Shown one piece after another: positions 18,779 through 62,973 of a DNA stretch of 64,000 bases. The DNA comes from Dictyostelium discoideum (Eukaryota). The position numbers and the translations under genes were made by a program. The stretch covers positions 576,001-640,000 of the forward strand of contig CM000152.2 in NCBI GenBank assembly GCA_000004695.1, in the 5' to 3' direction. Numbering within the stretch: position 1 is the first letter of the stretch; every line of letters starts with the position of its first letter. The notes below the pieces were generated by a model. That model was given only the letters and a program-made list of their open reading frames with translations, did no database searches and was not told the DNA's origin.

Positions 18779-18809
<31 letters not shown>

Positions 18810-20285: not shown

Positions 20286-20321
<36 letters not shown>

Positions 20322-20989: not shown

Positions 20990-21022
<33 letters not shown>

Positions 21023-22251: not shown

Positions 22252-22316
<65 letters not shown>

Positions 22317-22655: not shown

Positions 22656-22705
<50 letters not shown>

Positions 22706-22965
22706 TGAGAAGGGAGACTTCTTTGATATTGAAAATCTATCAGGATTTGATAATGGTAATAACCATGGTGAAACTTTAATAATTTCCAAAATACATGGGT
22801 GTGTTTCATAAACATAAAATAAACTAACTGCTGCCCATATTGAAGATAGTGACCTATATTTTATTATATGATTAATTTGATTGATTAGATTAATACCGAG
22901 AGGGTGATTTTTAGATATATGTATACATTTTATTATTATTATTATTTTAATTTTATTGTGTTATT

Positions 22966-23004
<39 letters not shown>

Positions 23005-23510
23005 AAACATCTTAAAATAAATGTTGAATCTTTAAAATTATATGAAAGGATCTTTGTATCTGATGCTACAATACCAGTTTGACCGTAACATTTGGTTATC
23101 ATTTCTCTTACAATCAATTCCAATTTTTCTTTTGTAATTGATTGATAATTTCTTAATTAATAAATAAATGGAAATTTAGTGTTAGTATTGCTTGTTGTAA
23201 AATAAAAAAAAATAAAAAATAAAAAACCGAAAATATTACACTTTAATTAAAAGATAAAAATAATTTGAATGAATTGTTTGTTTTTCCATTATTATATATA
23301 TATATACTAATATATTTCAGTTGATTTTTTATATAAATCTATTATTGGTTGTTTTTTAATAAAAATAAAAATAATAAAAATAATAAAAATTTTTATCTAT
23401 ATTTAGAAGAAGTTCGAACGTTTTTGGGTTTTTTTTTTTTTTTTTTATTATTTTTGAAACTTTTAAAAAAAAAAAAATAAAAAAAAAAATAAAAAAAAAT
23501 TTTAAAAAAG

Positions 23511-23553
<43 letters not shown>

Positions 23554-23595
23554 TTTGGATTCTACTACAAAACTCATCAAAAAAAAAAGATACAA

Positions 23596-25031: not shown

Positions 25032-25036
25032 AATTT

Positions 25037-25067
<31 letters not shown>

Positions 25068-25283
25068 GATTTATATTTTAAATCTGTTTTGGTTTAAAAA
25101 TTCTGGAAAAAATAATTATAACTACAAAGTGTAATAATAAGAAATTATTATTATTATGATTATTATTATTATTATTATTATTAAATGTATGGAAATTAAA
25201 AATAAATAAATAAAAAATTGATACAATAAGATTTATTACTTTTTTTCACCAAAAAAAAAAAAAAAAGTTTTGTTTATTCTATT

Positions 25284-26879: not shown

Positions 26880-27033
26880 GTTGTGTGTCGATTTTTTATT
26901 TTTTGAAATTTAAAAAACGAAATTTGTTTTTTGTTTTTTTTTTTTTTTTTTTAAATTTCTCTCTCTGGTTATAGTTTTTTAATTTTATTTTTTATTTTTT
27001 TATTTTTTATTTTATTTTTTTTTTATTTTTTGA

Positions 27034-27814
27034 TCAATTCGAACTATGTTTATTAATTGAATCTTTAAAAAGTTTAATAGTTTCTTTTGGATCTTGATTT
27101 GGTTTGAAAAGAGCAGAACCTGCTACAATAACGTTTGCCCCAGCTTCAGCTGCCATATCAATTGTTGATGGATCGAGACCACCATCAACTTGAATATTTA
27201 AATTTGGATATTTGGAACGGAGTGTTTTAACTTTTGGCATCATATCTTTCATGAATGATTGACCACCGAAACCAGGTTCCACTGTCATAATTAAAACGAA
27301 ATCCAATTGATCAACGTATGGGAAAACTTCTTCGATTGGAGTTTTTGGTTTAACACATAAGGCAACTTTCATACCTGCTTCTTTGATTTGTGTAATCACC
27401 TTTTGTGTAATACCTCTTGGTTCGGTTGCTTCAATATGAAATGTAATTGAGTTTGCACCTGCATTCTTAAAATCTTCAATCATTGTCTCTGGATTTGTTA
27501 CCATTAAATGACAATCAAAATAACCTTTTGTATGTTTTCTTAAACTCTTTACAATTGGTGCTCCTAATGTTAAATTTGGTACAAAATGATTATCCTTTTA
27601 TTTTTCGTTACCCAAAAAAAAAAAAAAAAAAAAAAAAATTGTTAGAAATTAATAATAATAATAAATTATAAAAAATAAAATAAAAAATAGAACTTACCAT
27701 AACATCAATATGAAGCCAATCAGCTCCACATTCTAACATATAGTTTGAATCTCTTGCTAAAAATGCAAAGTCTGATGATAATAAAGATGGACAGATAATT
27801 GGTTTTAATGACAT
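27034..27814 (-). CDS. rpe: Ribulose-phosphate 3-epimerase
   Basis: Two exons, 27698..27814 and 27034..27594, joined across a 103-nt intron (GTAAGT...TAAAAG). The 225-aa product MSLKPIICPSLLSSDFAFLARDSNYMLECGADWLHIDVM|DNHFVPNLTLGAPIVKSLRKH...DCHLMVTNPE...GMKVALCVKPKTP...VLIMTVEPGFGGQSFM...QVDGGL...GANVIVAGSALF has the canonical RPE motifs throughout. Confidence 0.9.
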
Positions 27815-28344
27815 TTTTTTTTTTTTTTTTTTTTATATTATTTATTATTAAAATAAATAGTATTAGTACTATGTATTGAAATTTAGTATTTTTTTTTTTT
27901 TTTTTTTTAAATTAAAATAAAAATTAAAAAAAAAAATAAAAATAAAAAAAAAATTCAAAAAAAAAAAAAAAAATAAAAAAAAGCAGTATTACCGAAAAGA
28001 TTAACTGTTCCTTATTTTAAAAATCCATGATTCCCGTTATTAAAATGATTGGGAACGCATATCTTTTTTTTTTTCTTATTATTCTTTTTTTTTTTTTTTT
28101 TTCTTTTCTTTTCTTTTTTTTTCTTCTTTTGGGATGCATTATAAAAAAAAAAATTTTAAAAAAAAAAAAAATTAAATTGAATTTTTTTCGGTGAATGTAC
28201 AAAATTTCCTTTTTTTGTTTTTTGTTGTCAAATTTTAATTTAATTTAATTTTTATATTTATTATTTTTTTATTTTTTTTATTTTTTTTTTTATAATATTT
28301 AATTTTTTGGAATATGACTCTATTGCCATCGTTTTTTTAATTTA

Positions 28345-28377
<33 letters not shown>

Positions 28378-28572
28378 GTCATACATAACATTATAATAAT
28401 AATAAAAAAATAGTATAATATTTATTTATTTATTTAGTTAAAAAAAAATAAAAAAATAAAAAATTATAATAAAAAAATAAAAAATAATAAAAAATAATAA
28501 AAAACCCAATATCAATCTCTTAAAACTCCCGAAACATACAATTAATAATTTATTAAAGATAAAATAAATAAA

Positions 28573-29887
28573 ATGCAAAACACAAAAACATTTACTCCAG
28601 AGGAAGTATGTTAATTATTTTTCTTTATTATATTTTTTTTAATATACTTTTATTTTTTTTTATTTTTTTTTTTTTTTTAATTATTTTCTTTTATTCTTTT
28701 TAATTTTTTTTATGTGTAATAAAATTATAAATTATAAATTTAATAAAAAAAAAGAAAAGAAAAGAAATGAGGAAATCATTTGTAAATTATTTTATTTTTA
28801 TTTTTTTAATTAAAATAATTAATTAATAAAATTAGCTAATTTTTTATAATTTTATTTATATTAGGAACAAGAAATCTCTGAAAGAGTTCAAGAATATGAA
28901 GATAAATATGGTAGTTTAGATAGAACCTCAAGAATGTTGGAACAATTAAGAGATTCACATGCTACAGGTGTTGATAATTTAATGAAATTAGGACAACAAA
29001 GTGAACAAATGAATAGAGTTGAAAAGTTAACCACTGAACAAGAGCAAATGGTAAAGGGATTGGGTAAATATAAAAAGTTTAATAAATATATGAAAAGATT
29101 CTCAAAGAAGGATAAAGAAGAGAAACCAAAACCAAACAAAAACCAAGAGATTCACAACGAGGTAAAGAGATTAAAAGTTAAGAATGAAGTAGATGTTAAA
29201 ATTTTTAATAAAAGACAAAACGATGAAAAAGAAAAAAGAGAAAAAAGATTAGATGAATATAACCAAAAGTTGAGAGAAGATCAAGCTGCAGGTAACCCAT
29301 TTTCAGAGAATGCTGATAATACAACCACCACCACCACCACTACCACTACTTCCACTACTTCCTCTACTTCTATTAGAAAAACAAGTCCAAAACAAACCAA
29401 TGGTATGACAGAGGATGAAATGTTTGAAAAGAAAGGTTTATCAAAACTTTGGAATAAAGATAATGATCCATTAAGTAAGAATGATAAGATTCAAATTAAT
29501 GATGCCATTGAAACTCAAGCATTACCAATGAATCGTTTATCAGATGAATGTATGAAAGATAATGTGATCATTCAACGTTCAACTTGGATAAAGAAACAAG
29601 ATGCTCAGTTGGATGAAATGCAAGATATCCTCTCGGATCTAAAGAATATAAGTTTGGCAACTCAAACAGAGGTACAAACTCAATCACTCAAATTGGATGA
29701 CATTGGTGCCTCAATGGATAGAGGTTCCGATTTTTCACTCAAAAAGAAATCAAAACGTTCCATTGAAAAAGAACAAAAGAAAAAAGAAAAAGAAGAAAAA
29801 GAAAAAATTAAAAAAGAAGAAAAAACTAAACAAGACATTGATAAACAAGTTAAAAAAGATTTTGGTGTTGGTGTTAGTTCAAAATAA
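28573..29887 (+). CDS. SNAP-25/Sec9-like Qbc t-SNARE (two SNARE motifs)
   Basis: Exons 28573..28605 (MQNTKTFTPEE, donor GTATGT) and 28865..29887. The Qb motif ...SLDRTSRMLEQLRDSHATGVDNLMKLGQQSEQMNRVEKLTTEQEQMVKG aligns with the SNAP-25 N-terminal helix ([49 protein letters not shown]). The Qc motif is ...QDAQLDEMQDILSDLKNISLATQTEVQTQSLKLDDIGASMDRG. The first-exon assignment has moderate support. Confidence 0.6.
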
Positions 29888-30212
29888 TAATAATTTTTTA
29901 ATTTTAAAATAATGTACATAATATAATATAATATAAAATATATACATTAATTTGTAATATATCTCTTTTTTTTTTTTTAGAATAATCTTTTTTTTTTTTT
30001 TTCAATAATAAAATAAAAATAAATAAATAAAAGTGGCACAATATTATTATTTAATTTTAATTTTAGAATTTTTTATTTTATTTTTTTTTTTTAATATTCT
30101 TATTTTGGGAAATCGAACAAACTATTACACAATAGATTATTATTTTGTTTTTTTTTTTTTTTTCATTTTTTTTTTCTTTTTCATTTTTTTTTTTTTTTCT
30201 TTTTTTTTTTAA

Positions 30213-31085
<873 letters not shown>

Positions 31086-31300
31086 GGAAAAAAAAATTCC
31101 TAAAATTATTTTCCTAAAAATAATATTTATTTATTTATTTGTTTGTTTGGAAGTTGTTTTTTTTTTATTTTTTTATTTCTTTTATAAATATTATAAAAAA
31201 AAAAAAAAAAACTATTTTATTTCGTAACTGATTTTGAAAAAATTTTAATAAAACTTTGGACCCAATTTTTTTGATTTTTTTTTTTAATTTTTTTTTAATT

Positions 31301-31331
<31 letters not shown>

Positions 31332-31476
31332 TTTATTTTGAACTAAATTTCATTTTATTTTAAAACTAATATCATATAATCAAAAAAAAAAAAAAAAAAA
31401 TAAAATAAAATAAAATAAAATAAAACAAAAAAATTAAAATAAAATAAAATATTTAGATAATATAGAAAAATAAAAA

Positions 31477-32249
31477 ATGGTAAACTATTATTTCTTTTTT
31501 TTTTTTTTTTTCTTTTTTTTATTTTTTATGTTTGGAAGTTTCCAACTTGTCAAAAAAAAAAATAAAAAATAAAAATAAAAATAAAAAAAACAATTGAAAA
31601 AATAAAAAAAATCAGATTATTTATAAATATTTTCAAATAATTTTTTTTTTATTTTTTTATTTTTATTTATATATAGGCGTCAAAATTAAATGAAGAAGCA
31701 CAATCAGAATTTAAAGAAGGTTTTGCATTATATGATGGAAATAAAGATGGTAAATTAGAAGCAGCTGAATTAGCTAATACACTCAGATGGTTAGGTCAAA
31801 ATCCATCACAATCAGAAATTAATGAAATTTTAAGAGAATTTGGAAGTATGTGTTTATATTTATTTGGAAAAATGTCTCTCTCTCTCTCTCTCTTCCTGTC
31901 TCTTTTTTTTATCTCGAGAAAAACAAACTAAAATAAGATTTACTAATAATTCTATAATTTATAAATTTTCATTATAGGTAATAACCAAATGGGAGTGGAT
32001 GGATTATTTAATTATTTAGGTAGAAAAGTTGTTGATGATTTTGATGAAAAAGAAATTATTGAAGCTTTCCAAGTATTTGATAAAGATGGTAAAGGTATGA
32101 TCGGTGCTTCTGATCTTAGACATATTTTAACAAATTTAGGTGAAAGATTACCAGAAGAACAAGTAGAAGAAATGTTAAGACAGGCAGTCGGTAGTGGTGA
32201 TGGTGCAATCAACTATGAACCATTTGTAAGAAATATGTTAAAGAAATAA
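31477..32249 (+). CDS. EF-hand protein of the myosin essential light chain / calmodulin-like type (147 aa)
   Basis: Three exons: 31477..31479 (ATG only, donor GTAAAC), 31677..31845 and 31978..32249. Product: M|[57 protein letters not shown]|[10 protein letters not shown]...[62 protein letters not shown]. The C-terminal half aligns with vertebrate MYL6 (ELRHVLVTLGEKMTEEEVE...NGCINYEELLRMVL). Exon 2 has a stop immediately upstream and no internal ATG, so an ATG-only first exon is required. The same architecture occurs in the neighbouring cofilin gene. Confidence 0.7.
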
Positions 32250-32265
32250 AAGAATCCAAAAAAAA

Positions 32266-32297
<32 letters not shown>

Positions 32298-32499
32298 TTG
32301 TATAATATAAATAAAATCTTGTCTTTATTTGAAAAATTTTTTGATGGTTTTTTTTTTTTTTTTATTTGAAACAAAACTTTTTTTTTTTTTTGAAAAAAAA
32401 ATAACCAACCAACTTTTCAAACAATTTATGATAAGAGATAATTTCAAAAAAAGAAAAAAAAAAATAAAATAAATAACAATAAAACAAAAATAGATTACC

Positions 32500-32535
<36 letters not shown>

Positions 32536-32613
32536 AATACAGATTATTTTATTAAATTATATGTATGAGGAGATTTATTACTATTTATAAATATTGAATT
32601 CGTTCCTCGGGAG

Positions 32614-32645
<32 letters not shown>

Positions 32646-32652
32646 AAATTAT

Positions 32653-33121
32653 TTAGATTTTGGTACATTTTTCATAGAAACATGAATCTTTGACTTCAGA
32701 GGCATCGGTACCTTGGATTTCAACTTGGATACCAACACAGGCTTTACGTAAAGAGTCTTTTGATGAGGTGGCCATCATTTTCTTTTTAATGTTGGCGGTA
32801 TCTGGGCACCAGGCAACAAAACAGATTTTGCTCTTTTGGGCACCTTCTTCTTTGTATTGATAGTCGAGGACAACGTATCTACATTCGTTTTCTGGGAGAC
32901 ATTTGGTGAATTCATCGAATGAACAACCAGCTGGTAAGGTGGAGTCAACAATGATTTCTTTTGAATCGTCAGAGATTCTGTAGATGATACCACCATATTT
33001 ACGACCTAACTTTAAATCGTTGAAGGTTGAAACGCAGTTTGGAGCTAAAGCAATACCTGAAGACTATAAATAGTTTTTTTTAAAAATATAATAATAAAAA
33101 AAAAATTTATTATTAATATTA

Positions 33122-33182
<61 letters not shown>

Positions 33183-33434
33183 CCAATTATTTGTATAAAC
33201 CAAAATAGATTTTTTATTTTATTTTTCGTTTTTTTATTATTGTTATCCATGACTGTGGTATTATAAAAATAAAAAATATTATAAAGTGTTTGATCAAAAA
33301 TTTATATTATTTTTTATATTGGTACCACACAATTAAATTAAAATTTTAATTTATTATTATTATTAATTATTATTATTATTTTTATTATTATTTTTATTAT
33401 TTATTATTTATTTTTAAATAATTCTCATTACCAT
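32653..33434 (-). CDS. cofA: Cofilin (actin-depolymerising factor), 137 aa
   Basis: Exon 1 is the ATG alone (33432..33434, donor GTAATG). A roughly 368-nt intron containing (AAT)n separates it from exon 2 (32653..33063, acceptor TTTATAG). Product: M|SSGIALAPNCVSTFNDLKLGRKYGGIIYRISDDSKEIIVDSTLPAGCSFDEFTKCLPENECRYVVLDYQYKEEGAQKSKICFVAWCPDTANIKKKMMATSSKDSLRKACVGIQVEIQGTDASEVKDSCFYEKCTKI*. This matches Dictyostelium cofilin-1 as I recall it, including the intron directly after the start codon. Local GC content is higher than the surroundings. Confidence 0.9.
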
Positions 33435-33519
33435 TTTTTATATATAGTTTTTTATTTAGTTGAGTAAGTTGAATAGAATAAAAAAAAAAAAATGAAAAAT
33501 AAATATCACAAAAAAATTT

Positions 33520-33550
<31 letters not shown>

Positions 33551-34479
33551 TTAAAAAAAATTAAAATTTTTTTTTTTTTTTGGCTCACCCATATCGAGTT
33601 TGTGTGCATTTTTATCATAATAAACCCACTTTTTTTTTTTTCGCCATTTTTTTTTTTTTTAAATTTTTATTTTTTTTTATTTTTTATTTTTTTTTTTTGT
33701 GGTTCTGTTGTGTATTTAAAAAATAAAAAAAGTAAAAACAACCAAATTTTAAAAAATGAGTTTGAGTTTGGTTTTGTTTAATTTGGGTTTTGGTTAAATA
33801 TGGGTGTAATTTTTCCAAATCTTCGATAATGAGATTAACCATTCAATTGTTTAGATTTCTAATTTTTTTACATTAAAATTATAATAATTTTATATTTTTT
33901 TTCGTTTTTTTAAATTTTTTAATTTTTTTTTTATTTTAATTATTTAAATATTAAAAGAAAATATAAATAAATAGATAGATAGATAATTTTCATTGAATTT
34001 TGTAGTAATTTAAAAAATTACAATAAAAAAAAAAAAAAGAAACGGGAAATTGTGAATATTATTATTATTATTAATATTATTCTTTTATAATAATATTTTA
34101 AATTTAATTTTTAATTGTTTTAAAGATAATAAATAATAATATTATAAATTAAATTATTTTAAAATATTTCGTATTTTTAAAATATAATAAAGAAATTAAA
34201 AAAACAAAAAAATAGGTAATAATAAAAAAATATATTTTTTTTTTTTTTTTTATTAATTTTTTTTTTTTATTTTATTTTTTTTTCTAATCGTAACAATTTA
34301 AAGTGTGACAAAAGAAAGAGATTTAAACTGAAATTTTATCAATCTTAAAAAATTAAAATCACACACACACACACATATATATCAAACATTTAGATATATG
34401 AATATATTTTTTTTTTAATAATAATAATGTTTATTTAAGAAATTTTAAAATAATTATTTTTATAAATATTATAAAGTTA

Positions 34480-35449
34480 TTATTTTAATAAAATTTTATC
34501 AACAATTTTTTCATAAGCAATTACATTTGGATCATTTGATCTTTGTTCAATGAATGGTGAATTAATATCAACATATCTTGAACATTGTAATGACCATAAA
34601 TAATTACCACCCAATATTAATTTCATTGATCTTGTTAATAATTTTAAATCATCTCTTTGTTCAATTGGACATTCTAAAAGTAAAATTCTTTCATCTTCAC
34701 AAATTTGATTCATAATTTCATCATTAAATTTTAAAATTACTTTATAAACATTATCAAATGAACCAACTTGATTTTGTAAAAAATGTAAAGGGTTAGTTAA
34801 ATGATTATTATTTCTAATTTCTTTTGCATAGGAAGCACAATCATTCATTGTAGCCATTTGGTATCCACCATTAGTTGCAAATCTATCAAATCTTGGATTA
34901 ATCCAAATTTTTGGATCAATCTTTGAATTTGGATATAAAAGCATTGCAACTGAAAGTGAAACATATGTACCAGAATTAGTTCTTTTAAAAAAATTATAAC
35001 TATCATAATTATTTAAATTCTTTTTTTTTTTTTATTTATATTAATATTATTTAAAAATTAAAAATCAAATAAGTTTAAAAAAAAAAAAGAAAAAGAAAGA
35101 ATTAAAAATACATTACATCAGCTCTATTAAATGGATTAATTGAATTAATCCAATCAATAATAAATTTTAAAAATTGATTAAAGAATTCAATTTTTTCACC
35201 AACAAATTGTTTGGTTGTTTCTCTAAAATATAAAACATATTTTTCAATGTTTGAAATATTATTAGAATCATAAAAATTTCCATCCATAAAAATATGTTCC
35301 AATTTTTTAATTAATTCTCTAGAGTCATCTGGATTTGTTAATTTACTCTCTAAAAAATCATCAACTACAAAACAAACTGTAAGATATCTTGATGCAACCA
35401 AAAGTTGTTCATAGTTACATAAAGGATATAAATAAATTGTACTGGAAAC

Positions 35450-35509
<60 letters not shown>

Positions 35510-35752
35510 TAATTATAATTTTAAAAAATAAATAAATAAAATAATAATAATAATAATAGTAATATTAATATTAATAATAATAATATAGTTTTAAATTTAT
35601 TTACTTGTTCCATAATAATATTCAAGTGTTTTTTTATTTTCTTCAAATAATTTAAAATCAACAACTTCTTTATAACAAGTGTATATACACTTATCATTTG
35701 CAGGTGGTTCAATCCAATCTTCTGGGAATTTGAAATCATGAAGAGAATACAT
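34480..35752 (-). CDS. Microbial-type terpene synthase (class I, DDxxD/E + NSE/DTE motifs), paralog A
   Basis: Three exons: 35605..35752, 35117..35448 and 34480..35019. Introns are GTAAAT...TTTAG (156 nt) and GTAATG...AAAG (97 nt). The Asp-rich motif is ...LVASRYLTVCFVVDDFLESKL and the NSE/DTE motif is ...ATMNDCASYAKEIR. The gene is co-linear with paralog B in exon sizes (148, 332 and 540 nt). Confidence 0.75.
35457..35502. repeat. A46 homopolymer within intron 1 of terpene synthase A
   Basis: 46 consecutive A, counted directly. Confidence 0.95.
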
Positions 35753-35821
35753 TTTTTATTTATTTATATTATAGAATGGGAAATATTTTTTGAAGTTTTG
35801 TTTATTAAATATGAAAATTAT

Positions 35822-35858
<37 letters not shown>

Positions 35859-36466
35859 TAATAAAAGAAGTAAAATAAAAAATAATAATAATAATAATAA
35901 TAATTAAAATAATAATAATAAAATAATAATAATACAATAAAATCAAATAAAAGTAAAAAAGGTTTTAATGATAAATGTATATACAAAAGATTGCAGATAA
36001 ACCACTTTAAAAACATTTGGTCCAGTTTAGACTTTTAAAATTTTTTATTAATTTAAATTAAATATAAGGTCGACCTTTTTTTATTTTATTTTAAATTTAT
36101 TTTTTGTTTATTTTTTTCATTTTTGTAACACCCCATTTATAGTTTTTTATAATTAATTAACCTTTAAAAATAAAATACAATATTAAATGATAATAAATTA
36201 TTGAAGAATAATAATAATAATAATTTTTTTTCTTGTTGGAGTTATTTTATTGGATTTTATCCATATATATTATTTTAAACTTTTCAATAATTATTCATTA
36301 ATAATAAATACTAATTCTCTGCGCTGTAAATTTTTTAAAAAAAAAAGGATTATGACAACACTTTTATATTTTTTTATTTTTTTTTTTTATTTTTTTTATT
36401 ATTTTTTTTAATCTCAAAATAAAAATTAAAAATTATTTTTTTTATCTAAAAATAAAATATAAATTT

Positions 36467-37676
36467 TTATAATTTAATAATTTTATCAACAATATTTTCA
36501 TAAGCAATTACATCAGGATTAATTGATCTTTGTTCAATAAATGGTGAATCAATATCATTAAATCTAGTACATTTCAATGACCAAGAATAATTACCACCCA
36601 ATATTAATTTCATTGATCTTGTTAAATATTTTAAATCATCTTTCTGATCATCTGGACACTCTTTTAAAAGTAATTCTTCATCTTTACAAATTTCATTAAC
36701 AATTTTGTTATTAAAATTTAAAATTAATTTATAAACTTGATCAAATGAACCAATTTCTTTTTGTAAAAAATATAATGGATTTGTTAAATGACAATTACTT
36801 CTAACTTCTTTTGCATAAGATGCACAATCATTAAATGCTGACATTTGATACGCACCATTACAAACAAATCTTTCAAATCTTGGATTCATCCAAATATTAG
36901 TATCAACTTTTGTATTTGGATTTAAAAGCATAGCCATTGAAAGAGTTACATATGTTCCAGAATTAACCTTTTTAAAAAAATTATAACTATCATAATTATT
37001 TAAATTCTTTATTTTTAATATAAAAAAAATAATGTTAATAATAATAAGTAATAATAAATAAGAATAAAAATAATAATAATAAAAATTTTATAAATTTATA
37101 ATTACAATTGCCTTATTAAATGGATTAATTGAATTTATCCATTCAACAAAAAATTTAATAAATTGATTAAAAATGTTAATTTTATCACCAACAAATTGTC
37201 TTGCTTTACCTCTAAAAAACATTGTATATTTTTCAATATTTGAAATATTAGATTGGTCAAGATATTCACCATCAATTAAAATATTTTCAATCTTTTTTGA
37301 CATTAAATTTGAAGTTTCTGAATCAACTAAATTACTTTCCAAAAAGTCATCAATAAGATATCCAACTGTAAGAAATCTACATGCAATTACAAGTTGTTCA
37401 TAATTACATAATGGATAGAAGTTTATGGTACTTGAAACTATTGTAAAATAAATAAAATATTAATTTATATATATAAAATTTATATATCAATTAAATATTA
37501 AATTTATTTTAAAAAAATAAATAATTACGTGTTCCATAATAATATTGAAAAGTTTGTTTATTTTCGTCTAATAATTTATAATTGATAACTTCTTTATAAC
37601 AATCATAAATACATTTATCATCTGCTGTTGGTTCAATCCAATCGCTTGGGTATTTAAAATCATAAATTGAATACAT
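36467..37676 (-). CDS. Microbial-type terpene synthase, paralog B (tandem duplicate of paralog A)
   Basis: Exons 37529..37676, 37106..37437 and 36467..37006, the same sizes and phases as paralog A. Product: MYSIYDFKYPSDWIEPTADDKCIYDCYKEVINYKLLDENKQTFQYYYGT|LSSTINFYPLCNYEQLVIACRFLTVGYLIDDFLESNLVDSE...NKAI|NLNNYDSYNFFKKVNSGTYVTLSMAMLLNPNTK...SAFNDCASYAKEVR.... It is about 60-65% identical to A at protein level. The junction-flanking nucleotides are conserved. Confidence 0.75.
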
Positions 37677-38553
37677 TCCTAATAAAATATTTTATTTTCC
37701 ATTAATTATTATAAATTATATAATTCTTTTTTTTTTTTTTTTTGTATAAACAATCCCTATAAAAATAATAGGAAAAAAAAATTAGATATTGAAAGTTCAC
37801 CATGTATATAAATAGTTTTTTTTTAAAAAAAAAATTATTTATTTTTAAAATTATTAATAATTTTTTAATTACAATATTGGAGGAAAATTTGATTGGATTT
37901 TAAAATTATTTTTTAATATTCTCAAAATTAATGTTGAAAAGTAGTTGGAGAAACTATGGATGGTTGAAAGCCTATGATAATTCTTTTTTTTTTTTGATAA
38001 AAAATAAAAATTGGTTTGCTAATTTTTTATTTTTTTATCTTTTTTTTTATTTTTTTTTTTTTATTTTTTGCATATAAAATTATAAAATAAATATTAATTT
38101 AAAAAATATTAATTAAAAATTTTTAATGCAAATGAACTATTTAAAAATGAAAAGAAAAAATAATTACCTTTTTATATGATTATTTGGTTATCAAGTAAAA
38201 ATTTAAATATTAAAAGATTTTTTTTTTTTTTTTTTATTAATAGATAGAAGGTGGGAAAAAATAAAGAAAAAAAAAACTTAACCTATTAAGAATCTGTCTT
38301 AATTTTAATTATAAAACCTTTTTTATAATTTTAATTAAAAAATAAATAAATGGGAATTAATTTTATCCCGAAAAAAAAAAAAAAAAAATATTATTATTAC
38401 CAGATTCTTTAGATCTTTTTTTTTATTAATTATTTACTTGGAAAAAAAAAGAGTTGTAATTCCTTTTAAAATTACCTATTGTTATTTTATTTTTATTTTT
38501 ATTTTTATTTTTATTTACAAGAATATTTATTTTATATATATATATATATATCT

Positions 38554-39842
38554 CTAATTTGACATTACAATACATAATGAGATTGCATTTACAATTGATT
38601 GAGAAGCATGTAATGGAACGAAATGGTCAGTTGAATTATTAACTATTTGAACACTATTTGAAGAGTAATGAGTCATATCGAATTGAATATCAATCCAATC
38701 AGGTGCACAATCTTGAGAAGCTGTTAAAACCACCAATGATTTATTACCCAAATATTGACTATTTCCAAAGAGATTATTTTGATTTATTAGTATATCATTC
38801 AATTGATTAATTGAATCAAATATAATTGATAATTCATTCTTTGATGCATCAATACTATTAAAAGATTGATAAATTAAATCTGTTGAATACTTTAAAGTAT
38901 CACTTAATTCAATTGTTGATGATCCTAAATACCCACTTGATAATGGAAAAAATGGTGTTAAAATTCTAGTAATACCACTTGGTAAAATATATTTTAAAAC
39001 TTTAAAACTCTTTTTTTATAAAAAAAAAAAAAAAAAATTAGAAAAAATTATAAATAAATATAAAATTATAAATAGATATATAAATTTATATAAATAGTGC
39101 ATACATTAATACCTTGATTAATAAGGTTAATTAAAAAATTATCAGTTAAATCAGTTAAACCCATTGAATCAATTAATAAGACACCATCAACCATTGATGG
39201 GAATTGTGATGCGAATAATTGTGACAATATACCACCATAACTCCAACCAACTAAAATTAAATGATCATTTATACCAATTAATTCTAAATATTGTTTTAAA
39301 TCATTAGCAGCTTCAATAGCATCAACACCTTTATTTCTATTACTTTTATATTTTAAATCACTCCAACCATATCCATATCTATCATATACACAATATTGTT
39401 TAATTTTATTCATTGGACTATTACTACTATTATTTATTTGTTGTTGTTGTAAATTTTCTAAAACGTTACCCCAAATAGTTGAATAAAATGGTGTACCAGC
39501 TTCAAATAGTATTGTTTTTTCAGCATCACCACCACCACCACTACCAGCATATTCAAAACATCTAATATGTAATGATGTTTCATTTATAGTTGGTCTAAAA
39601 CTTTTACCACCAAATTCACCAGAAAAAGTTTTATTTGGGTCTAAAAATATATCTGATTGTTGAATTAATAAAATTATATCTATTATTGATATTAATGATA
39701 ATGTAAAGAATAAATATGAAAAGTATCTCTTTTTATTAGTTTTACCAATAAAATAAAAAAATAATGATACTACCACTAAACAATATAATGTTGATGGTAA
39801 ATATCTATATTCTATTTTAATAAAATCACTTAAACAATTCAT
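38554..39842 (-). CDS. Membrane-anchored alpha/beta-hydrolase (esterase/lipase-like, GxSxG nucleophile elbow)
   Basis: Exons 39105..39842 and 38554..39009, joined across a 95-nt intron with an unusual GTATGC donor and an AAAG acceptor. There are N-terminal TM helices. The nucleophile motif is LILVGWSYGGILSQLFASQF. Exon 2 supplies the likely catalytic Asp and His (..SQDCAPDWIDI.. and ..NNSTDHFVPLHAS..). The track ORFs 39066..39842 and 38554..38802 are the two halves. Confidence 0.55.
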
Positions 39843-39957
39843 TTTTTTTTTTTTTTTTTTAAAAAAATCTAATTTATTATTAATGCTTAAAAAGAAAAAA
39901 AAAGAAAGGAGAAAAAAAAGAGAGGAGAAAAAAAAGAGAGGATAAAAAAAGGTGTGG

Positions 39958-39991
<34 letters not shown>

Positions 39992-40132
39992 CATTTTTTT
40001 TTATTTTTATTTTTATTTTTAATTTAAGAACATTTAATTTTATTTTTATTAATTTTTATTTATTTTTAACACAGATATATATATATGGATCTTTTTTTAA
40101 AATTAAATTAAATTAAATGTTTGTTTATTTAA

Positions 40133-40614
40133 TTATTTTTGAATTTGATAACGACGTTGTGGTTTATTAACTGAATCAGAAATTAACATTGCATCTCTAA
40201 TTTCAGGAATATCATGAATTCTAATTATATTTGCACCCCACATTGAACCAATACAACAACAAGCTATTGTACCCCATAATCTTCTTTCACTCTTTGGAGA
40301 TGGTGGTGGTAAGGATTTATCCTTTTCAGCATTTGCAATTGTATTTGCGATAAAACCTTTTCTTGAAGGACCAATTAATACTGGAAATCCTAAACCCATC
40401 AATTCTTTACCTCTTTGTAAAATTTCAATTGATTGTTCATAAGTTTTATAAAATCCTAAACCTGGATCCAAAATAATTTGCCATCTAAATAAACCTAACT
40501 TTGTACAAGTTTCAATTCTTTCTTTAAAAAATGAATTTAATGTTGTAATAACACTTTGGACTTGATAAATCAATTTTTTGTTTAATTTTTGATCTATTAT
40601 CGTTATCATTATCA

Positions 40615-40693
<79 letters not shown>

Positions 40694-42179
40694 CTTCACC
40701 ATTTGTATTTATACTACTATTACTATTACTATCATTACTATTATTTAAATATTGTTCATTTTGTTTTTGTTGTAAATATTGAGTTGTTGGTTGTGAATGA
40801 TTTAATATAATTGGTACTCTAAATTCTTTTGCAATTAAAAGTATTTGTGGATCAGTCATACCACCACTAACATCATTGATGATATTACAACCTGCTAATA
40901 TTGCTTCCTTTGCAACTTGATGATGAAGTGTATCAATTGAAAGTGGAATATCATTACCCAATACTTCTCTAATCTTTTTAATGGTTGGCACAACACGATT
41001 GATCTCTTCTTCTATTGAAATTTGTTGAGCACCTGGATAAGTTGATTGACCACCAATATCGATGATATCAGCACCTTGTTCAATTAAGGCAGTAGCTTGT
41101 TGAATTGATTTCTCAAGAGTATTAAATTTACCACCATCAACAAAACTATCTGGAGTAACATTTAAAATACCCATTATAAATGTTTTATCATTCCAATTAT
41201 AATTTAAATTTCCAATTCTAATAACTTTTTCAATTATATTATTACATGTTGTTGTTGCAGTTGGTGGTGGTGGTATGTTATGAATGTTACCACCATTTGG
41301 TAAATTTAATTTCATTCTGTTTGTTGTTATATGTAATGTTGGATGAATGAAATTTGGAGCAATGTCAGAGAGTGGAAGTAATACGAAATCTCTTTCCCAC
41401 ATTAATGGATGTGGTATTTCTAAATCATCGGTTTTGATGATTAAACCATTATAATAGATGATATCGATATCGATTACACGTGGACCATTTCTAAATGTTT
41501 CAACTCTACCCATATCATTTTCAATTTGTTTAATGAATTTCAATAGATCGTGTGGTTTTAAATCTGTACTAACTTTACAAGCACAATTATAGAATGAATC
41601 TTGTTCTCTATAATATTGTGGTGAACTTTCATACATGAATGAAGTTGATTGTATAAAACATTGTTTTTCTAATCTTTTAAAACTATTTAAAATATTTTGA
41701 AATTTATCACCTAGATTTGAACCAAATGCTAAATAAACTATATTATTACCAGCATTACTATTATTACTATTCTTATTATTATTAATTAATTTTGAAGGTA
41801 TTTCAACAAATGAATTTGATTTAAAATAATCTAAAGTTCTTTCAATTTGAACACCTGGCCATTTAGCTAATTTAATTGCACCTGGTTTTTGTACCAAAAC
41901 TTTAACACGTTCAATACCAAATCCTAAACAACAAATTTTTGCCACACCAGTTGCTAATGCTTCTAATGTATAATGATGTGATGATTCTGAATAGGAACAA
42001 ATTGATTTCGATAAGGAACTATAAGAAACTGTATCAATTACATTATCTGATGATCCACATTTTGATAAATCTTTATATGCTGTAACTGAAATTATAATAT
42101 TTTGTTTAATTATTCTTTCACCTGGATTAACACCAATAACTGCTTGAATTAAAAGATCTTTTATTATAATTTTATCCAT
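40133..42179 (-). CDS. Trifunctional folate-biosynthesis protein: dihydroneopterin aldolase, 6-hydroxymethyl-dihydropterin pyrophosphokinase (HPPK) and dihydropteroate synthase (DHPS), FOL1/Fas-like
   Basis: Track ORFs 40524..42179 and 40133..40702 are the two parts, in different frames. The N-terminus MDKIIIKDLLIQAVIGVNPGER... is the aldolase. The HPPK segment is ...IVYLAFGSNLGD...PRVIDIDIIYYNGLIIKTDDLEIPHPLMWERDFVLLPLSDI. The DHPS segment is ...IMGILNVTPDSFVDGG...DIIDIGGQST...NDVSGG...VPIILNHSQ...//...ILDPGLGFYKT...GFPVLIGPSRKGFI...GANIIRIHDIPE. The two frames can be joined either by a 106-nt (AAT)n intron 40594..40699 with a GTGAAG donor and AATAG acceptor (exons 40700..42179 and 40133..40593), or by assuming a 1-nt indel. 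See findings. Confidence 0.75.
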
Positions 42180-42890
42180 TTTTTTTATTTTTTATTTTTT
42201 ATTTTTTATTTTTTATTTTTTTTTATTTTTTATTTTTTATTTTTCTTAGTTTTATTCAAAATTAAAAAAAAATCAATGGCAAATATCAAATATTTTTTAT
42301 TTATTTAATTATTTAATTATTTATTTGTTTAATTTTTTATTAGTTTAGTTATTTATTTGTTTTAATTTTTTATTTATTTATTTATTTTTGAAATTCTGTT
42401 AGTGTGGTGTGAGTTTGTGAATTCGAATTTAGTGTATTTTTTTTTTTTTTTAATTATTAAAAAGTTTTTTTTTTTTTATTTTATTTTTTATTTTTTTTAA
42501 TTTTTTTAATTTTTTTTGACTCATTGAAATTAAAAAAAAATCCATATATAGAACGATGGGGTTACACAATTTTGTGAAGGTCTTTTTTTTATAAAATAAT
42601 TGAAAAATCCCAATAAAAATAAAAATATATTTTCATATGAAAAATGTCTAAAAAAAAAAAAAGAATGGCAGAACATTCGTTTTGTTTTTTTTTTTTTTTT
42701 TATTTCTATTTATATATTATTTCAACAAATCTTTTTTTTTTTTATTTTTATTTTTATTTTTTTTTTTTTTTGGGAAGATATTTTTTTTTTTTTATATATA
42801 TTATTATTTTTATTATTATTATTATTATTGTTTATATTTTTTTATTTTACCATGAGTGAAATTATTGACCATAATAAAATTTTTTTTTTT

Positions 42891-45800
42891 TTAAAATTCA
42901 TCCTCTTCATCATGATCGACTGGTATATTATCTAAAAATGAGAGATCGGCAGTTGGAGAAGTTTTAGTTGGTGATACAGTATTAATAATTGGAGTTGGTT
43001 CTAAAACTAAATCATGATCAACTGGACTTGGATCAATGAGTGGTGGTGCAGTTATATTAATATCTTGTTGTTGTTGTTGTTGTTTTTGTGGAGAAGCAAT
43101 TGAATCATTCTTTCTAATTGGTGATGGTGATGAAAGTGGTGATGCAACTTTTTGAGTAGTATTTGTATTTGTAGTGGTTGTAGTAGTGGTGGTGGTTGAA
43201 GTAAAATCTAGATCATCTAAAAGTGATGCTGTATTATTATTATTTGTATTATTTGTATTATTATTTGTATTGGTTGTTGTTGTTGTTATATCAGAAATAC
43301 CAGAATGTAAACTAAAATGTTGTAATTGTGATAAAACTTTATCATAATCTTGTTGAGAAACAGATTCAATCTCTTCTAAAAGGTTTCTTTGTTTCTTTGA
43401 TAATGATTGTGCAGTAGCATTTTTTAAATAATCAAAAGATGATTTTGGTTGAGATCTTAATGATTCGAAATATTTCTCTGCTTTAATTGATAAATCATAT
43501 TGTGGGAATAAATTTGGGAAATCGATTGGATTTGAAAGTGCATCGGATGCTTTTGAGCTTGTACTCTTTAAACTCTCTTTCCATTTCTCAACCATATCAG
43601 GTACCATCGATGGTAAATAGGTACGTGCCATAAAGGCTGCCTCTGAGTAATCACCACTTGCACATAATGTATTCAAACAATTCAATAATGAATTTGGTAA
43701 TAAAAGATTACAAATAAAACTAATATTAGTTTGACCTTTTTCTTCTGACAATTTTGCCAACATTTTCATACCCTCAATATCACCTGTAGAAGTATATAAT
43801 AACAATAATCCTGGTAAATCTTCTGCTTTCTTTAAACAATTTTCTGCTAATTTAATCTATTTTTTTAAAAAAAAAAAAAAATACAAATAAAATTAATATT
43901 ATTATTTATAAAAAAACACCATATTATATATATATATATGTATTTTTATATATATATTTACTTCACCAATTGATAAAGCTAAGTCACCTAAATGTTTAAA
44001 TTTAGTTTCAGAATCAGATTTTAAGGCGATTTCATGAGCAACATCAAGATTTTCTAATTGAATTGCTAATTCGAATCTATGATCAAGATCAGTTGAAACC
44101 TCTAATGCTTTCTCTTTATAACCTTGAGATTCCAAAAAGTGTGCAATACTATTTCTTTGATCTTGTGGTATCTTTGGTAAAATTCTTTCTGCACCTTCTA
44201 AATCACCTCTTAAAATTGATGTTTGATAGCTAATAACTGAAATATGTAATTTATATGAAACAATATTTAAATTCTATTTTAAATGATAAGAAGAAAGAAA
44301 AAAAAAAAAGTATTAGTGATGGTATTTTTTTTTTTTTTTTTCAATAAATTTCCATTCTTTTTTTTTTTTTTTTTAAACTTTACCTTATCAGATAAATATA
44401 AACGACCACTTTGTGGTAAATATTTAAGTAAATACATATGTTTCTCTAAATGTGAAATTGTAACAACTTCAGTACCAACACAATAGTTTAATTTACTACT
44501 TCTATTTATATAGATGAAACAATCACCAACCCAAAGACCAGTACCAATGGTATCTTCAATTTCATGTACAACATCAAAAGCATTCTCAATACCTAATTCA
44601 CCAATTGGTTGACCACTTTCAATATATTTTTGAACTGTATCTTTATAATATCTAAGAATGAATGTTGATTTATCTGTGACAATTGCTAAATAATCACCAT
44701 TTTCTGACCAAAAGATCTTTAATCATTAAAATTAAAATTAATGTTAGTAATAATAATAAAAAATAAATAAATAAATATAATAAATAATACAAACATTTTT
44801 TGGTGAAGTTTTTTCAATTCTACGAATAATATCAGCAGAATCCCAACTATAGAAACAAAGTGTATCATTTGATTTTACACCAAGTAAAGAACCACCAAAG
44901 ATACCTTCAGCAGAGAAAGATGGTTTAAAACTATGAGTTTCTTTAAAGTTTTTAAAGATTTTAATACGAGATGTAGATTCACGTACAGCGTATTGACCTG
45001 AATCTTCTGCCCAAACAAATTCCAATGCATTACCAAATGATTTATTTCTCCAAGCTAGCGCGGTGTAAATGATGAATTCACCATCACCACAGACACTAAC
45101 GAATCTACCATTGGAGTTGTGTTGTAAACTTTGAGGGAACACTTCGCAATTGCCAAGATCTTTGGATTGGAGTGACAACTTTTCACCATCTTGTACCTCT
45201 TGCTCCAATGTGGAGGAGATGTTTGAGATTCTAATCTCATTGTGTTTTGCGTAGATTACCTTACCACCTTGGTCCATTGAAACGGGTGGTTTGTTCTTAC
45301 CAATCTTCAACACCACTGTACCGTCATCGTAGCCCAACCCAATGAAGTTGGAGCCACGTAAAAAGTTCATTGACCAAACGAAACCCATGCCATAGTTGAG
45401 TGTCCTCTCCAAACGGTAGGTGCTGGAGTGCCAGAGCTTCACGGTGCCATCTTCACTGCCGCTGAGGATCAAGGGGAGCTCGGGGTGGTAGCACACCACC
45501 GAGACGTTGTTTGAGTGGCCCTCCAATGTCTGGACGCAAGTCTTTGATTGGTAATCCCAAATTTTCACTAGCTTATCGTCGGCACCGCTTATCAAGTATG
45601 GCTTTTCACCGCCAGAGAAATACTCGACACTGTTGATACCCTTTTCGTGTCCCTCCAATGTAAAGTGAGGATGTGGTGAGTTTATACTCCACACTTTCAC
45701 AGTTTTATCCAATGATGCGGTTGCAAATTGATTGGTATCCTTTGGATTCCATGCAATCGACATGACGTAATGTGAATGTCCTTCAAAGACTTGAGTGTTA

Positions 45801-46611
45801 CTCCATCCCTTTTCATAATCCCATAACTTTATAAACATATCATCCGATGATGATAATATATATGGTAATGTTGGATGAACTATAATACATCTAATATAAT
45901 CGGCATGTGCTTCAAATGATTTTATCTTTTCCATTGTATTATAATTATAAACTCTAATATATGTATCATCACTACCTGTAACTATCCATTGTTTCTTTGC
46001 AATGAATCTTGCTGTTCTAACTGGATTATTTGGTGAAACTTCAAATGATTTTACCATATTCTTTAATATTTTACATAATCAATCATCATCATCATCATCA
46101 TCATCATCATTTTTTTCAAAAAAAAAAAAAAAAAAAAAAAAAAAGAGTTTTGTGTGACATTATTATGATAATATTAGTATAAATAATTTATTTAAAACAT
46201 TATTGTTATTGTTATTATTGATTATACTATATGTAAATACATACTTGAGTTTCATAATTCCAAATATAAACATTACCATCATATAAACTTGCTAAAATCC
46301 ATGGTTCTGTTGGGTGAATATCAACAGATTTAACTCTATCTGATCTTGTTGATAATTTTTTCTATATATTAATTATTATTATTATTGTTATTGTTTTTTT
46401 ATAATTGTTATTTTATAGTTTAGAATTATTTTTATATTGATAAGAGAATATTAAATACAGTAAAAAATTAAAAAAAGAGTTAGGAGTGTGAGTTAAATTT
46501 TTATTTTTTATATTTTTTATTATTTTTTTTTTTTCAATTATTAATATCTTAAAGAATATAATAATAAAAATAATAATTAAATAATACCTTAATATCTAAA
46601 CGTAAAGGCAT
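42891..46611 (-). CDS. Coatomer subunit beta-prime (COPI beta'-COP)
   Basis: Six exons: 46588..46611 (MPLRLDIK), 46245..46361, 44795..46060, 44384..44716, 43962..44273 and 42891..43856. The protein is co-linear with human COPB2 throughout: MPLRLDIK|[39 protein letters not shown]|NMVKSFEV...(WD40)...[12 protein letters not shown]|[13 protein letters not shown]...LYLSDK|[73 protein letters not shown]...LSIGE|[30 protein letters not shown].... Donors are GTATTA, GTATGT, the non-canonical GTTTGT, GTAAAG and GTAAAT. Confidence 0.9.
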
Positions 46612-46908
46612 TTTTTTATTTTTTTATATATTTTAAATATATATTGATAAAAAATATATATTAATAATTGAAAAAAAAAAAAAAAAATGATTTTTTTATA
46701 AAAAAAAAAAAAAAAATAAAAAATAAAAAAAAAAAAAATTTTGAAAATTTAAAAAAATGATGTTGAAGTTTCATTTTTGGCCACGTATAAAAAAAAAAAT
46801 AAACAAATTACACCTTAATTTTTATTTTTTAATAAAAAAATTGGTTATGTCTTTTGTGTAAAATAAATAAATATATACATACTAGGTGTTCAATGCATTG
46901 TTGTTAAA

Positions 46909-46949
<41 letters not shown>

Positions 46950-47185
46950 ACTCAATATTGAGGGAAAAAAAAAAAGAAATTAAAAAAATAAAAAGTAAAA
47001 ATAACAAAAAAAAAAAATTATTTTTTAGATATATTTATATATACAGATTTTTTTATTTAATTAATAATTTACAAATGTGTTTTTTTTTTTTTTTTTTTTT
47101 TTTTTTTTCTTTGGAAATCTTGGCAATGACTTTTTAACTTTTTGGGTTGGCACTTGTTTTAAAAATTGTTTTTTTGGTTTTTTTT

Positions 47186-47368
47186 TTATTTGGAAATCTT
47201 TGTGGAAGTCTTGGTGGAATATTTGCCCTTGGAGAGGATTCTTTTGGATTTTGAAAACATTGGTAATGACTTTTTAACTTTTTGGGTTAGTACTTGTTTT
47301 AAATCAAACATTTGAACTCTAGTTCTTTTTGATAATTGGATTGCTCTTCTTGTTACAATTTTAACCAT
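47186..47368 (-). CDS. Small basic ORF (60 aa), paralog 1 of a divergent pair; function unknown
   Basis: MVKIVTRRAIQLSKRTRVQMFDLKQVLTQKVKKSLPMFSKSKRILSKGKYSTKTSTKISK with an A-rich start context. The 3' half overlaps a 45-bp tandem duplication (..cattaccaatg/cattgccaag..actttttaactttttgggtt..). Confidence 0.3.
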   Translation of the reverse strand: MVKIVTRRAIQLSKRTRVQMFDLKQVLTQKVKKSLPMFSKSKRILSKGKYSTKTSTKISK

Positions 47369-47865
47369 TTTTTTTTTATTTTTTAAAACCTTTTTATTTA
47401 TTTATTTTGATTTATTTGCTTTTATTTAATTATTTTTTGATTTGTTTAAAAAATTACAAAATTTTGGTTGGTATTTATTTTAGAAAAAAAATAAATGAAA
47501 AAAAAAAAATTATAAAAAAAAAAATAAAAAAAATTATTTGTGGATTGACTTTTACAAGAAATCTTTTTTTTTTTGTTAAAAAATTTTTTTATTTTTTGCT
47601 TAAATTAAAAAAAAAAAAACAAGAGAAAAAAAAAAGATAAGAATGATCAAGAGTTCTTTTTTTTATTTTAAGCAAAAAATATTATTTTCTTGTAAAAATA
47701 AAAATAAAAATAAAAATAAAATTTTGTCATCCTCAATTTAAACCTTTTTTTTTTTTTTTTATTTTTTTTATTTTTTTTTTTTAAGATTTTTATGAATAAA
47801 TTTATAAATTAGTTTTTAATAAAGAAATACATTAAAGAAAAAAAAATAATAATAAAGAAAATAAA

Positions 47866-48015
47866 ATGGTTAAAATAACAACTAGAAGATCAATCAAATT
47901 ATCAAAAAGAAATAGAGTTCAATTATTTGATTTAAAGCAAATTCTTGTACAAAGAGTCAAAAAATCTCCTCAATTATCCATAAAAAAAAAAATTACAAAA
48001 ATCAAACATAAATAA
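47866..48015 (+). CDS. Small basic ORF (49 aa), paralog 2, transcribed divergently from 47186..47368
   Basis: MVKITTRRSIKLSKRNRVQLFDLKQILVQRVKKSPQLSIKKKITKIKHK*. The first 34 codons are about 75% identical in protein (about 80% in nucleotides) to the minus-strand copy. It is below the 60-aa cut-off of the ORF track. Confidence 0.3.
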   Translation: MVKITTRRSIKLSKRNRVQLFDLKQILVQRVKKSPQLSIKKKITKIKHK

Positions 48016-48576
48016 AAGTACCTGAAAGTTGTGAAAATAAAAAAAAAAAAAATTGGCTGTTTATGAAACTACTCAAAATGGACCAAAAGGAGTATTGATC
48101 AACAAAAAAAAAAACTTTATGATAGATAACCTTGCGGGTAGTTTAACGTCACCCCCACCACTGCATCGAAAACTAATAAATTTTTAATTAATTATATTCA
48201 AATTTTATTCTACAAATCCAAATTTTTTTTTCTTTTTTTTTTTTTCTTTTTTTTATTTTTTTTTATTTAAACAATTTTTTTTATTTTTAAAGAATATTTT
48301 TTTTTTTTTTTTTTATTGTTTGCACTTTTTCAGATTTTTTTTACTTTTTTTTTATTTTTTGTATGCTTTTTATAGATTTTTTTTTTTAGATATTTTTATT
48401 TAATTTTTGAATGATTTTTTTACTTTTTTTTTACTTTTTTTTTTATTTTTTTTTTTTAAAAAAAAAAAAGGTTACCTTTAATGTCCACCATACACCTCAA
48501 AATAAGTAAAATAAATTTTTAATGCCTAAAAAAAGCCACCACAACCCATAATAAATAAAAATATAATTTTTTATTA

Positions 48577-48578
<2 letters not shown>

Positions 48579-48627
<49 letters not shown>
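48579..48627. repeat. A49 homopolymer
   Basis: Counted directly. Confidence 0.95.
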
Positions 48628-48629
<2 letters not shown>

Positions 48630-49079
48630 TATTTAAAAAGAATTTGATTACTTTTTTTTTTATTATTCTCCAAAAACAGATTTTTTTAATTTTTTTTTTT
48701 TTTGAGATTTTCACTCCGATTTCAAAGCATTATTTGAATTGAACTGTTAGGGTGATGAATTTTTCCCAGCACACACAGAAAAATTATTTTCTAATGGAAT
48801 AGTATTACGGCAAGCCGACAGACACTATATTGTTCCACAATGATTAATCAAAAAATCGAAAAAATTTTATTTTTAAATTAACATAATTTTTTTTTTTTTT
48901 CTTTTTTTTTTATTTTCTTTTTTTTTTTTTTTTTAATGTATAATATTATTTTAATTTTTTAAAATTTTTTTTTTTTTTTTTGGAAATTTGTTCTATAAAT
49001 AATTTGTATTTTTATTTGTCATTATAAAAATTAAGAGTTTTACTTTACTCTTAAATAAATAAATTTGGTTAATTCTCTA

Positions 49080-49081
<2 letters not shown>

Positions 49082-49126
<45 letters not shown>
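49082..49126. repeat. T45 homopolymer upstream of the frizzled-like gene
   Basis: Counted directly. Confidence 0.95.
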
Positions 49127-49127
<1 letters not shown>

Positions 49128-49260
49128 TTTAATATAAAAGATAAATAATAATAATAATAAAAAATAATTTAAAATTAATTTTTATAAAATATAAAATAGT
49201 AATTAATAATAAAAAAAAAAAAAAAAAAAAGTAAAATAGTTTTAAAAAAAAAAAAAAAAA

Positions 49261-51925
<2,665 letters not shown>

Positions 51926-51961
51926 TTTTAAAATTTTTTATTTTATTTTTTATTATTCGAT

Positions 51962-52103
51962 TAATAAATAAATCGATACAACATCAAATCGAAATTCAAA
52001 TCTAATTCAAATCTAATTCAAATCTAAATCCGATTCAATTTATTATTAAATTAAAAAATTAAAATAAAATTTAAAATAAAAGAATAGAAAAAAAAACATA
52101 TGG
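51962..52103 (-). repeat. Copy B of the dispersed element of about 140 bp with an internal (AGATTTGAATT)3 tandem array, inverted relative to copy A
   Basis: The reverse complement aligns to 7779..7918: ..catatgg..ttttaatttaataataaattgaatcggatttagatttgaattagatttgaattagatttgaatttcgatttg.. Both copies sit 25-85 nt downstream of the stop codon of a + strand gene. Confidence 0.8.
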
Positions 52104-52600
52104 TTTTTTTTTCTTTTTTTTTTTTTGTTAGAAAGTAAATTTTGGTTTTTTTTTTTTGTTTTTTTTTATTTATTTACAAGTTTTTGTTATTAATTTATTT
52201 ATTTTATTTTTATTTTTATTTTATTTTTATTTTTAAAATTTAATATTATAATGACTTCATATTTATTATAATATTTATCTTTTTTATAAAAATTAATAAC
52301 GGTTTTTTTATTTATTTTATTTCCATTAATCAAAAACAATAATCGATTAGTAAAATTTTGAGGTTGAAAATTTAGCCAATTTTTTTTTTTTTTTTTAAAC
52401 AAAAAAATGAATTTTAAATCCTCTTTTTGTGAAGGGTTACAATACCAAAATTAAAAATAATTTTAATTTTATTTTTAATTTTTTTTTTTTAACGACAAAA
52501 AAAATTTTTTTTTTTTTTTTTTAAATTAAAAAAAAAAAAAAAATAAAAATTTGCTAAGTTAATTTATTTTTTAAATTGTAAATAAAACTAAAATAATAAA

Positions 52601-56830
<4,230 letters not shown>

Positions 56831-56970
56831 GAAAAAAAAAAAAAAAAAATAAAAATTATTATTATTATATGTATAAAGAAAAAATAATTTATTTGTTTTG
56901 TTTTGTTTTGTTTTTTTTTTTTAAAAAATTTATTTATTTATATATCTAGATAATTAACTTTTTTTTTGAA

Positions 56971-62456: not shown

Positions 62457-62495
<39 letters not shown>

Positions 62496-62917: not shown

Positions 62918-62973
<56 letters not shown>

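Follow-up and report, generated by a model that had tools for sequence, protein, structure and literature searches.

Organization of the fol1 locus

The window analyzed here is a 64,000-nucleotide stretch of the Dictyostelium discoideum genome with a G+C content of 21.5%. Among its open reading frames (ORFs), exact matches were found to the AX4 proteins DDB_G0278273 (Q54YE8) and DDB_G0278281 (an abhydrolase, Q54YE0), and the isoleucyl-tRNA synthetase (IleRS) of AX4 also matches an ORF of the window exactly, minus its first exon. Because these neighboring ORFs match AX4 proteins exactly, we take the window to be the AX4 reference sequence.

The gene fol1 occupies positions 40133..42179 of the minus strand. 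According to the Pfam matches and to its counterpart in an independent assembly (described below), it is a single-exon FolB-HPPK-DHPS gene that encodes 681 aa after the removal of one A. The order of the domains on the polypeptide is FolB (PF02152), HPPK (PF01288), and Pterin_bind (PF00809), each of them above its gathering score, and the three domains of a trifunctional FolB-HPPK-DHPS protein are found on one polypeptide. The product shows 56-89% identity with the dictyostelid orthologues and about 35-40% with the fungal FOL1 proteins. In the literature searched we found no mention of DDB_G0278283, Q54YD9, or FOL1_DICDI, and for DHPS or folate biosynthesis in Dictyostelium the search turned up a gene-fusion survey alone, in which D. 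purpureum served as the query (PMC4224340, Genome Biol Evol 2014). The window gene has the same FolB-FolK-FolP order as the FOL1 of Amoebozoa and fungi described in that survey, with a single FolB, as in other Amoebozoa. It departs from this family in a loop insertion of approximately 64 residues, including 25 Asn, located between positions 139 and 142 of the Pterin_bind model, and in that its ORF is broken as written.

In the window as written, the DHPS barrel is distributed between two overlapping ORFs of the minus strand. ORF A (42179..40524, 551 aa) contains FolB, HPPK, and positions 1-139 of the Pterin_bind model, and ORF B (40702..40133, 189 aa) contains positions 142-244. The two ORFs overlap at 40524..40702, exactly where a previous sequence-only reading of this DNA had described a DHPS domain split between two frames. 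The pure (AAT)25 repeat that it had reported inside the overlap was also confirmed by a regular-expression count, which places it at 40617..40691 (minus strand), where it provides 25 Asn codons in frame A. TRF delimited a larger, imperfect triplet array around this tract, at 40595..40693 of the same strand.

Position of the frameshift

The same reading had located the change of frame inside the repeat. We found instead that the frame changes at the sequence CCAAAG, in a run of three A with one extra A (40555..40557, minus strand), 60 nt to the 3' side of the pure repeat and 37 nt to the 3' side of the intron acceptor proposed in that reading, where CCA-AAG-TGT is present instead of CCA-AGT-GTT. 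The coding part of frame A extends over 40558..42179 (minus strand), from Met1 to ...IDLSSP, and includes the translated poly-Asn loop insertion; positions 1-139 of the Pterin_bind model correspond to aa 336-477 of this part. The Pfam match restarts at model position 142 in frame B, at the Ser that follows the CCAAAG site or at the second residue past it. The coding part of frame B (40133..40555, minus strand) reads SVITTLNSFFKERIE...QIQK and comprises 140 aa followed by the stop codon; it corresponds to the C-terminal part of the DHPS barrel and is collinear with the orthologues. The effect of the extra A is to convert ...IDLSSP-SVITTLNSFF... into ...IDLSSP-KCYYNIKFIF*, so that frame A ends as ...SSPKCYYNIKFIF at a premature TAA stop codon (40524..40526, minus strand). 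An (AAT)n repeat is open in two consecutive frames, which encode poly-Asn and poly-Ile (ATA), and ORF B extends back over the repeat because (ATA)n encodes poly-Ile without a stop codon and an incidental ATG is present at 40702. The case of fol1 illustrates that a tract of this kind can mislead on the location of a frameshift.

This position was defined by comparison with seven other Dictyostelium genomes: three wild isolates of the D. discoideum group (L001-L003), the independent assembly (L004), D. firmibasis (L005), D. purpureum (L006), and D. citrinum (L007). With small variations, these orthologues read ...NRSKIKQKIDLSSP|SVITTLNSFF... as a continuous ORF, and the arrangement ...NRSKIKQKIDLSSP-SVITTLNSFFKERIE... 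is present in the three isolates, D. citrinum, D. firmibasis, and D. purpureum. The protein pattern at the site is (R)S.K.(Q)KIDLS(S/N)P-SVITTLN, the D. purpureum variant being QKIDLSNP-SVITTLNNFF, and the Pro-Ser-[Ile/Val] junction is kept in more distant dictyostelids. At the nucleotide level, the codons at the site are cca/ccg agt gtt in the seven genomes, and just upstream of it D. firmibasis shows the synonymous changes agt>agc and cca>ccg in frame A. In the alignment with the three isolates, the window has CCAAAGTG where they have CCAAGTG, and all the indels in fol1 relative to them are multiples of 3 except the extra A. The path followed by the orthologues thus shows that the coding sequence remains in frame A across the poly-Asn tract and the 13 conserved codons behind it, and that the switch to frame B coincides with Ser-Val-Ile-Thr.

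The independent assembly, GCA_054883475.1, was reached through the neighboring abhydrolase protein, and the locus lies on CM142509.1, a chromosome of 6.43 Mb. Its proteins are identical to those of AX4, and its fol1 gene (3668..5713 of L004) consists of one exon of 2,046 nt that encodes 681 aa. Over the 2,047-nt gene, the sole difference between the window and this assembly is one A (CCAAAG in the window, CCAAG in the assembly), which is also absent from the other six Dictyostelium genomes. When one A is deleted from the window, a 681-aa protein is obtained in which Pterin_bind positions 1-139 and 142-244 lie in a single frame, as they do in the independent assembly, and which is collinear with the seven orthologues. 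The strain list of a study that reported ten Nanopore-plus-Illumina assemblies, with AX2-214 (79x) as the only laboratory strain (Holland et al., PNAS 2025; PMC12745789), together with the identity to AX4 proteins, indicates that GCA_054883475.1 is probably AX2-214. Regarding the sequence-only reading, one of its two proposals, a 1-nt indel or assembly error, agrees in kind with the single A that distinguishes both assemblies, but the position it gave was the microsatellite or the adjacent A-runs, and the change lies further downstream, in the three-A run of CCAAAG, still within the overlap of the two ORFs. We conclude that fol1 is an ordinary single-exon gene, that its poly-Asn loop is translated, and that its correct product is 681 aa long.

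In the interval between the IleRS and abhydrolase genes, the UniProt/EAL numbering leaves room for five accessions, and four genes were called in the AX2-like assembly. Because of this difference, the AX4 annotation may contain fol1 as two models, or an extra small gene may be present.

The poly-Asn tract

It is common in D. discoideum for AAT repeats to be translated into poly-Asn tracts. The tract of fol1 resembles these in that its AAT codons are in frame and lie in a non-conserved loop, and in that its length differs among strains by multiples of 3; in this comparison it shows nothing unusual. The length of (AAT)25 is identical in the AX2-like assembly. The alignments suggest that the expansion to (AAT)25 is specific to the NC4-derived laboratory lineage or its close kin, and the tract appears to be a lineage-specific coding microsatellite in a variable loop of DHPS.

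The wild isolates of the D. discoideum group (L001-L003) have 63 nt fewer at the tract, and short DN or SN repeats are found there.

Splicing and recoding as explanations for the broken frame

The other, main proposal of the sequence-only reading was that a spliceosomal (AAT)n intron of 106 nt (40699..40594, minus strand), with a GTGAAG donor and an AATAG acceptor, removes the poly-Asn tract, so that ...SSINTN is followed directly by DQKLNKKLIYQVQSVITT.... Part of this description was borne out: the stretch begins with GT and ends with AG, has a length of 1 mod 3, and leaves upon excision an open ORF of 646 aa that retains the three Pfam domains. The candidate also resembles the short AT-rich GT-AG introns of Dictyostelium in its ends, its size, and its very high A+T content. 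The junction peptide had been given as ...SSINTNG|DQKL...; the split codon G|AT yields ...SSINTN-D-QKLNKK... instead. A full enumeration gave 29 GT..AG pairs that restore the frame, the proposed intron and 28 others with equally suitable ends and length, and the existence of such a pair carries little weight because there are 29 of them in this AT-rich stretch. What the description did not fit is the nature of the sequence itself (40594..40699), which is coding sequence. Past the proposed acceptor, frame A encodes RSKIKQKIDLSSP, which is conserved at the protein level in the seven other genomes with synonymous substitutions; splicing would lose this segment and put in its place DQKLNKKLIYQVQ, a frame-B peptide to which nothing in the orthologues corresponds, and the resulting junction does not match the orthologous proteins. 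Moreover, the same sequence, (AAT)25 included, forms an uninterrupted ORF of 681 aa in the AX2-like assembly, and the G at position +3 of the donor departs from the A-rich consensus of Dictyostelium donors. The gene is single-exon in L001-L003, L004, D. firmibasis, and D. citrinum, and no intron was found at the proposed place in any of the orthologues examined (L001-L007). Unlike Dictyostelium introns, the candidate would destroy conserved coding sequence upon removal, and the ORF is continuous in the orthologues and in the same-lineage assembly. The intron was rejected because it would delete RSKIKQKIDLSSP, conserved in seven genomes, and create DQKLNKKLIYQVQ, which lacks an orthologue; we regard splicing at this place as extremely improbable. 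An equally negligible likelihood was assigned to recoding, that is, to a real extra A that is bypassed at CCA-AAG by programmed +1 ribosomal frameshifting or transcriptional slippage so that full-length Fol1 is made. The sole point for it is that Fol1 could be made in full only by skipping a single base precisely at the CCA-AAG codon; the site lacks the slippery codon, hungry codon, stop codon, and stimulator of known +1 sites, and the extra base is missing in seven relatives, so that there is nothing conserved to recode. To our knowledge, a run of three A is also too short for transcriptional slippage. Both forms of recoding were rejected from these sequence features and the lack of conservation of the base.

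D. purpureum has a 78-nt intron in fol1 (1175..1252 of L006) at codon 58, within the FolB domain; it is absent from the genes of D. discoideum, D. citrinum, and D. firmibasis.

Exact look-ups in the protein collection found neither the products of the intron models (646, 641, 636, and 659 aa) nor the 551-aa ORF, the 189-aa ORF, or the corrected 681-aa protein. The absence of these products is uninformative, because the 681-aa product of the AX2-like assembly is not in the collection either, although its neighbors are.

Origin of the extra A

To polarize the differences between the window and the AX2-like assembly, wild isolates (L001-L003, L010, and L011) were used as outgroups. Over the approximately 50 kb compared (L004, L008, and L009), the differences are mostly in the length of long homopolymers and microsatellites, accompanied by about 15 substitutions, and no single-base indel in a short run was seen other than the A in fol1. 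The density of non-repeat discrepancies is about 1 per 3-8 kb, which is far above what we would expect for two sublines of one clone, NC4. Since this density is too high for NC4 sublines, most of the differences should be errors in one or the other assembly, and the A in fol1 has no special claim to be real. At the six informative non-repeat differences (40557, 38530, 38014, 52501, 50567, and 47075), the outgroups agree with the newer assembly in every case, a result that has a chance of 1 in 64 under symmetric real divergence. That the window is the odd one out in six of six suggests scattered errors in the 2005 reference rather than real divergence.

At 38014, 38530, 47075, 50567, and 52501 the window carries substitutions, including one dinucleotide change, that are candidates for base errors of the reference; all five are presumed to be non-coding.

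We propose that the frame of an ordinary single-exon fol1 is broken in the window by a supernumerary A in CCAAAG (40555..40557), and that (AAT)25 is translated as a run of 25 Asn in a variable loop between Pterin_bind positions 139 and 142. The extra A would have entered the 2005 Sanger reference of AX4 through wrong base calling or assembly, with neither splicing nor recoding involved. On the evidence of the genome comparisons, it is highly probable that the break in the frame is such an error and not a real mutation. The case is like that of other single-base insertion errors in draft or Sanger references, which cause a spurious split of an ORF: the window is one base off an independent assembly of the same lineage, removal of this base restores a conserved full-length ORF and its DHPS domain, and the neighboring discrepancies are also derived in the old reference. 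It differs from the typical single-base error in that the A lies in a run of three, with no long homopolymer, and such a run is not a classic site of sequencing errors. The other origin to be considered is a true mutation, in which the AX3/AX4 laboratory lineage alone would have acquired the frameshift; we judge it unlikely from the same comparisons. A genuine insertion of this kind would look identical when the assemblies are compared, since the window has the A and the independent same-lineage assembly and all the wild isolates are without it; likewise, six derived states out of six would also be expected if the AX3/AX4 lineage had accumulated more real mutations. In addition, the truncated ORF covers only Pterin_bind positions 1-139, and the loss of folate synthesis could be tolerated: folate is present in both the axenic and the defined media used for Dictyostelium, and amoebae eat folate-producing bacteria. 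Against a mutation stand the derived state of the window at the six polarizable positions nearby, the density of differences, too high for real divergence of two NC4 sublines, and the fact that a weak search of public assemblies found no frameshifted product (551, 189, or 161 aa). The 161-aa product of frame B, which starts with MMIMIT, was not on record in a similarly weak look-up.

If the mutation were real, the AX4 product would be 551 aa long and would comprise FolB, HPPK, and the first approximately 139 of the 244 positions of the DHPS model, without the C-terminal strands of the barrel that bear the motifs DPGxGF, GPSRK, and RIHD. We take these motifs to carry the pterin- and pABA-binding residues, as in the solved DHPS structures, and because they would be lost, the truncated enzyme would be expected to be dead. 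AX4 would then need an external supply of folate, either the medium or bacteria. That the extra A is genuine in AX4 (and perhaps in AX3), and that this strain has a DHPS-dead Fol1 and is a folate auxotroph, unlike AX2 and the wild isolates, seems to us slightly less likely still than the mutation itself. It would mean that the two main laboratory lineages differ in their metabolism in a way that has gone unnoticed, and would have a bearing on work with folate chemotaxis, antifolates, and defined media. The two origins predict different sequences for the site in AX4, TCCAAGTG for a reference error and TCCAAAGTG for a real mutation. If the A is an error of the reference, as we favor, AX4 models that bridge the frames by an intron, or that split or truncate fol1, would be wrong, and the practical consequence would be small.

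Other features of the window

Two tandem paralogous genes with 79% nucleotide identity are located at approximately 34462..35468 and 36452..37457; their ORFs start with MLLYPNSKIDPKIW... and MAMLLNPNTKVDTNIW..., respectively. In the AX2-like assembly, the genes called at the places of these two paralogues lie at 8166..9375 (339 aa) and 10084..13171 (461 aa) of L004, and the 339-aa product gave no Pfam hit. For an ORF of 1409 aa (52601..56830; 1410 aa in the AX2-like assembly) and for its upstream neighbor gene, the two assemblies differ only in the lengths of triplet repeats, at 53119..53198 and 51797..51853; this represents either variation of a coding microsatellite or assembly noise. A neighboring ORF of 156 aa was not on record in the protein collection. 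Finally, in the comparison of 15261..64000 with the corresponding loci of the AX2-like assembly (L004, L008, and L009), long A/T homopolymers had consistently greater lengths in the window, the excess reaching 26 nt near 62973; this may be caused by collapse of these runs in Nanopore sequencing or by over-calling in the Sanger reads.
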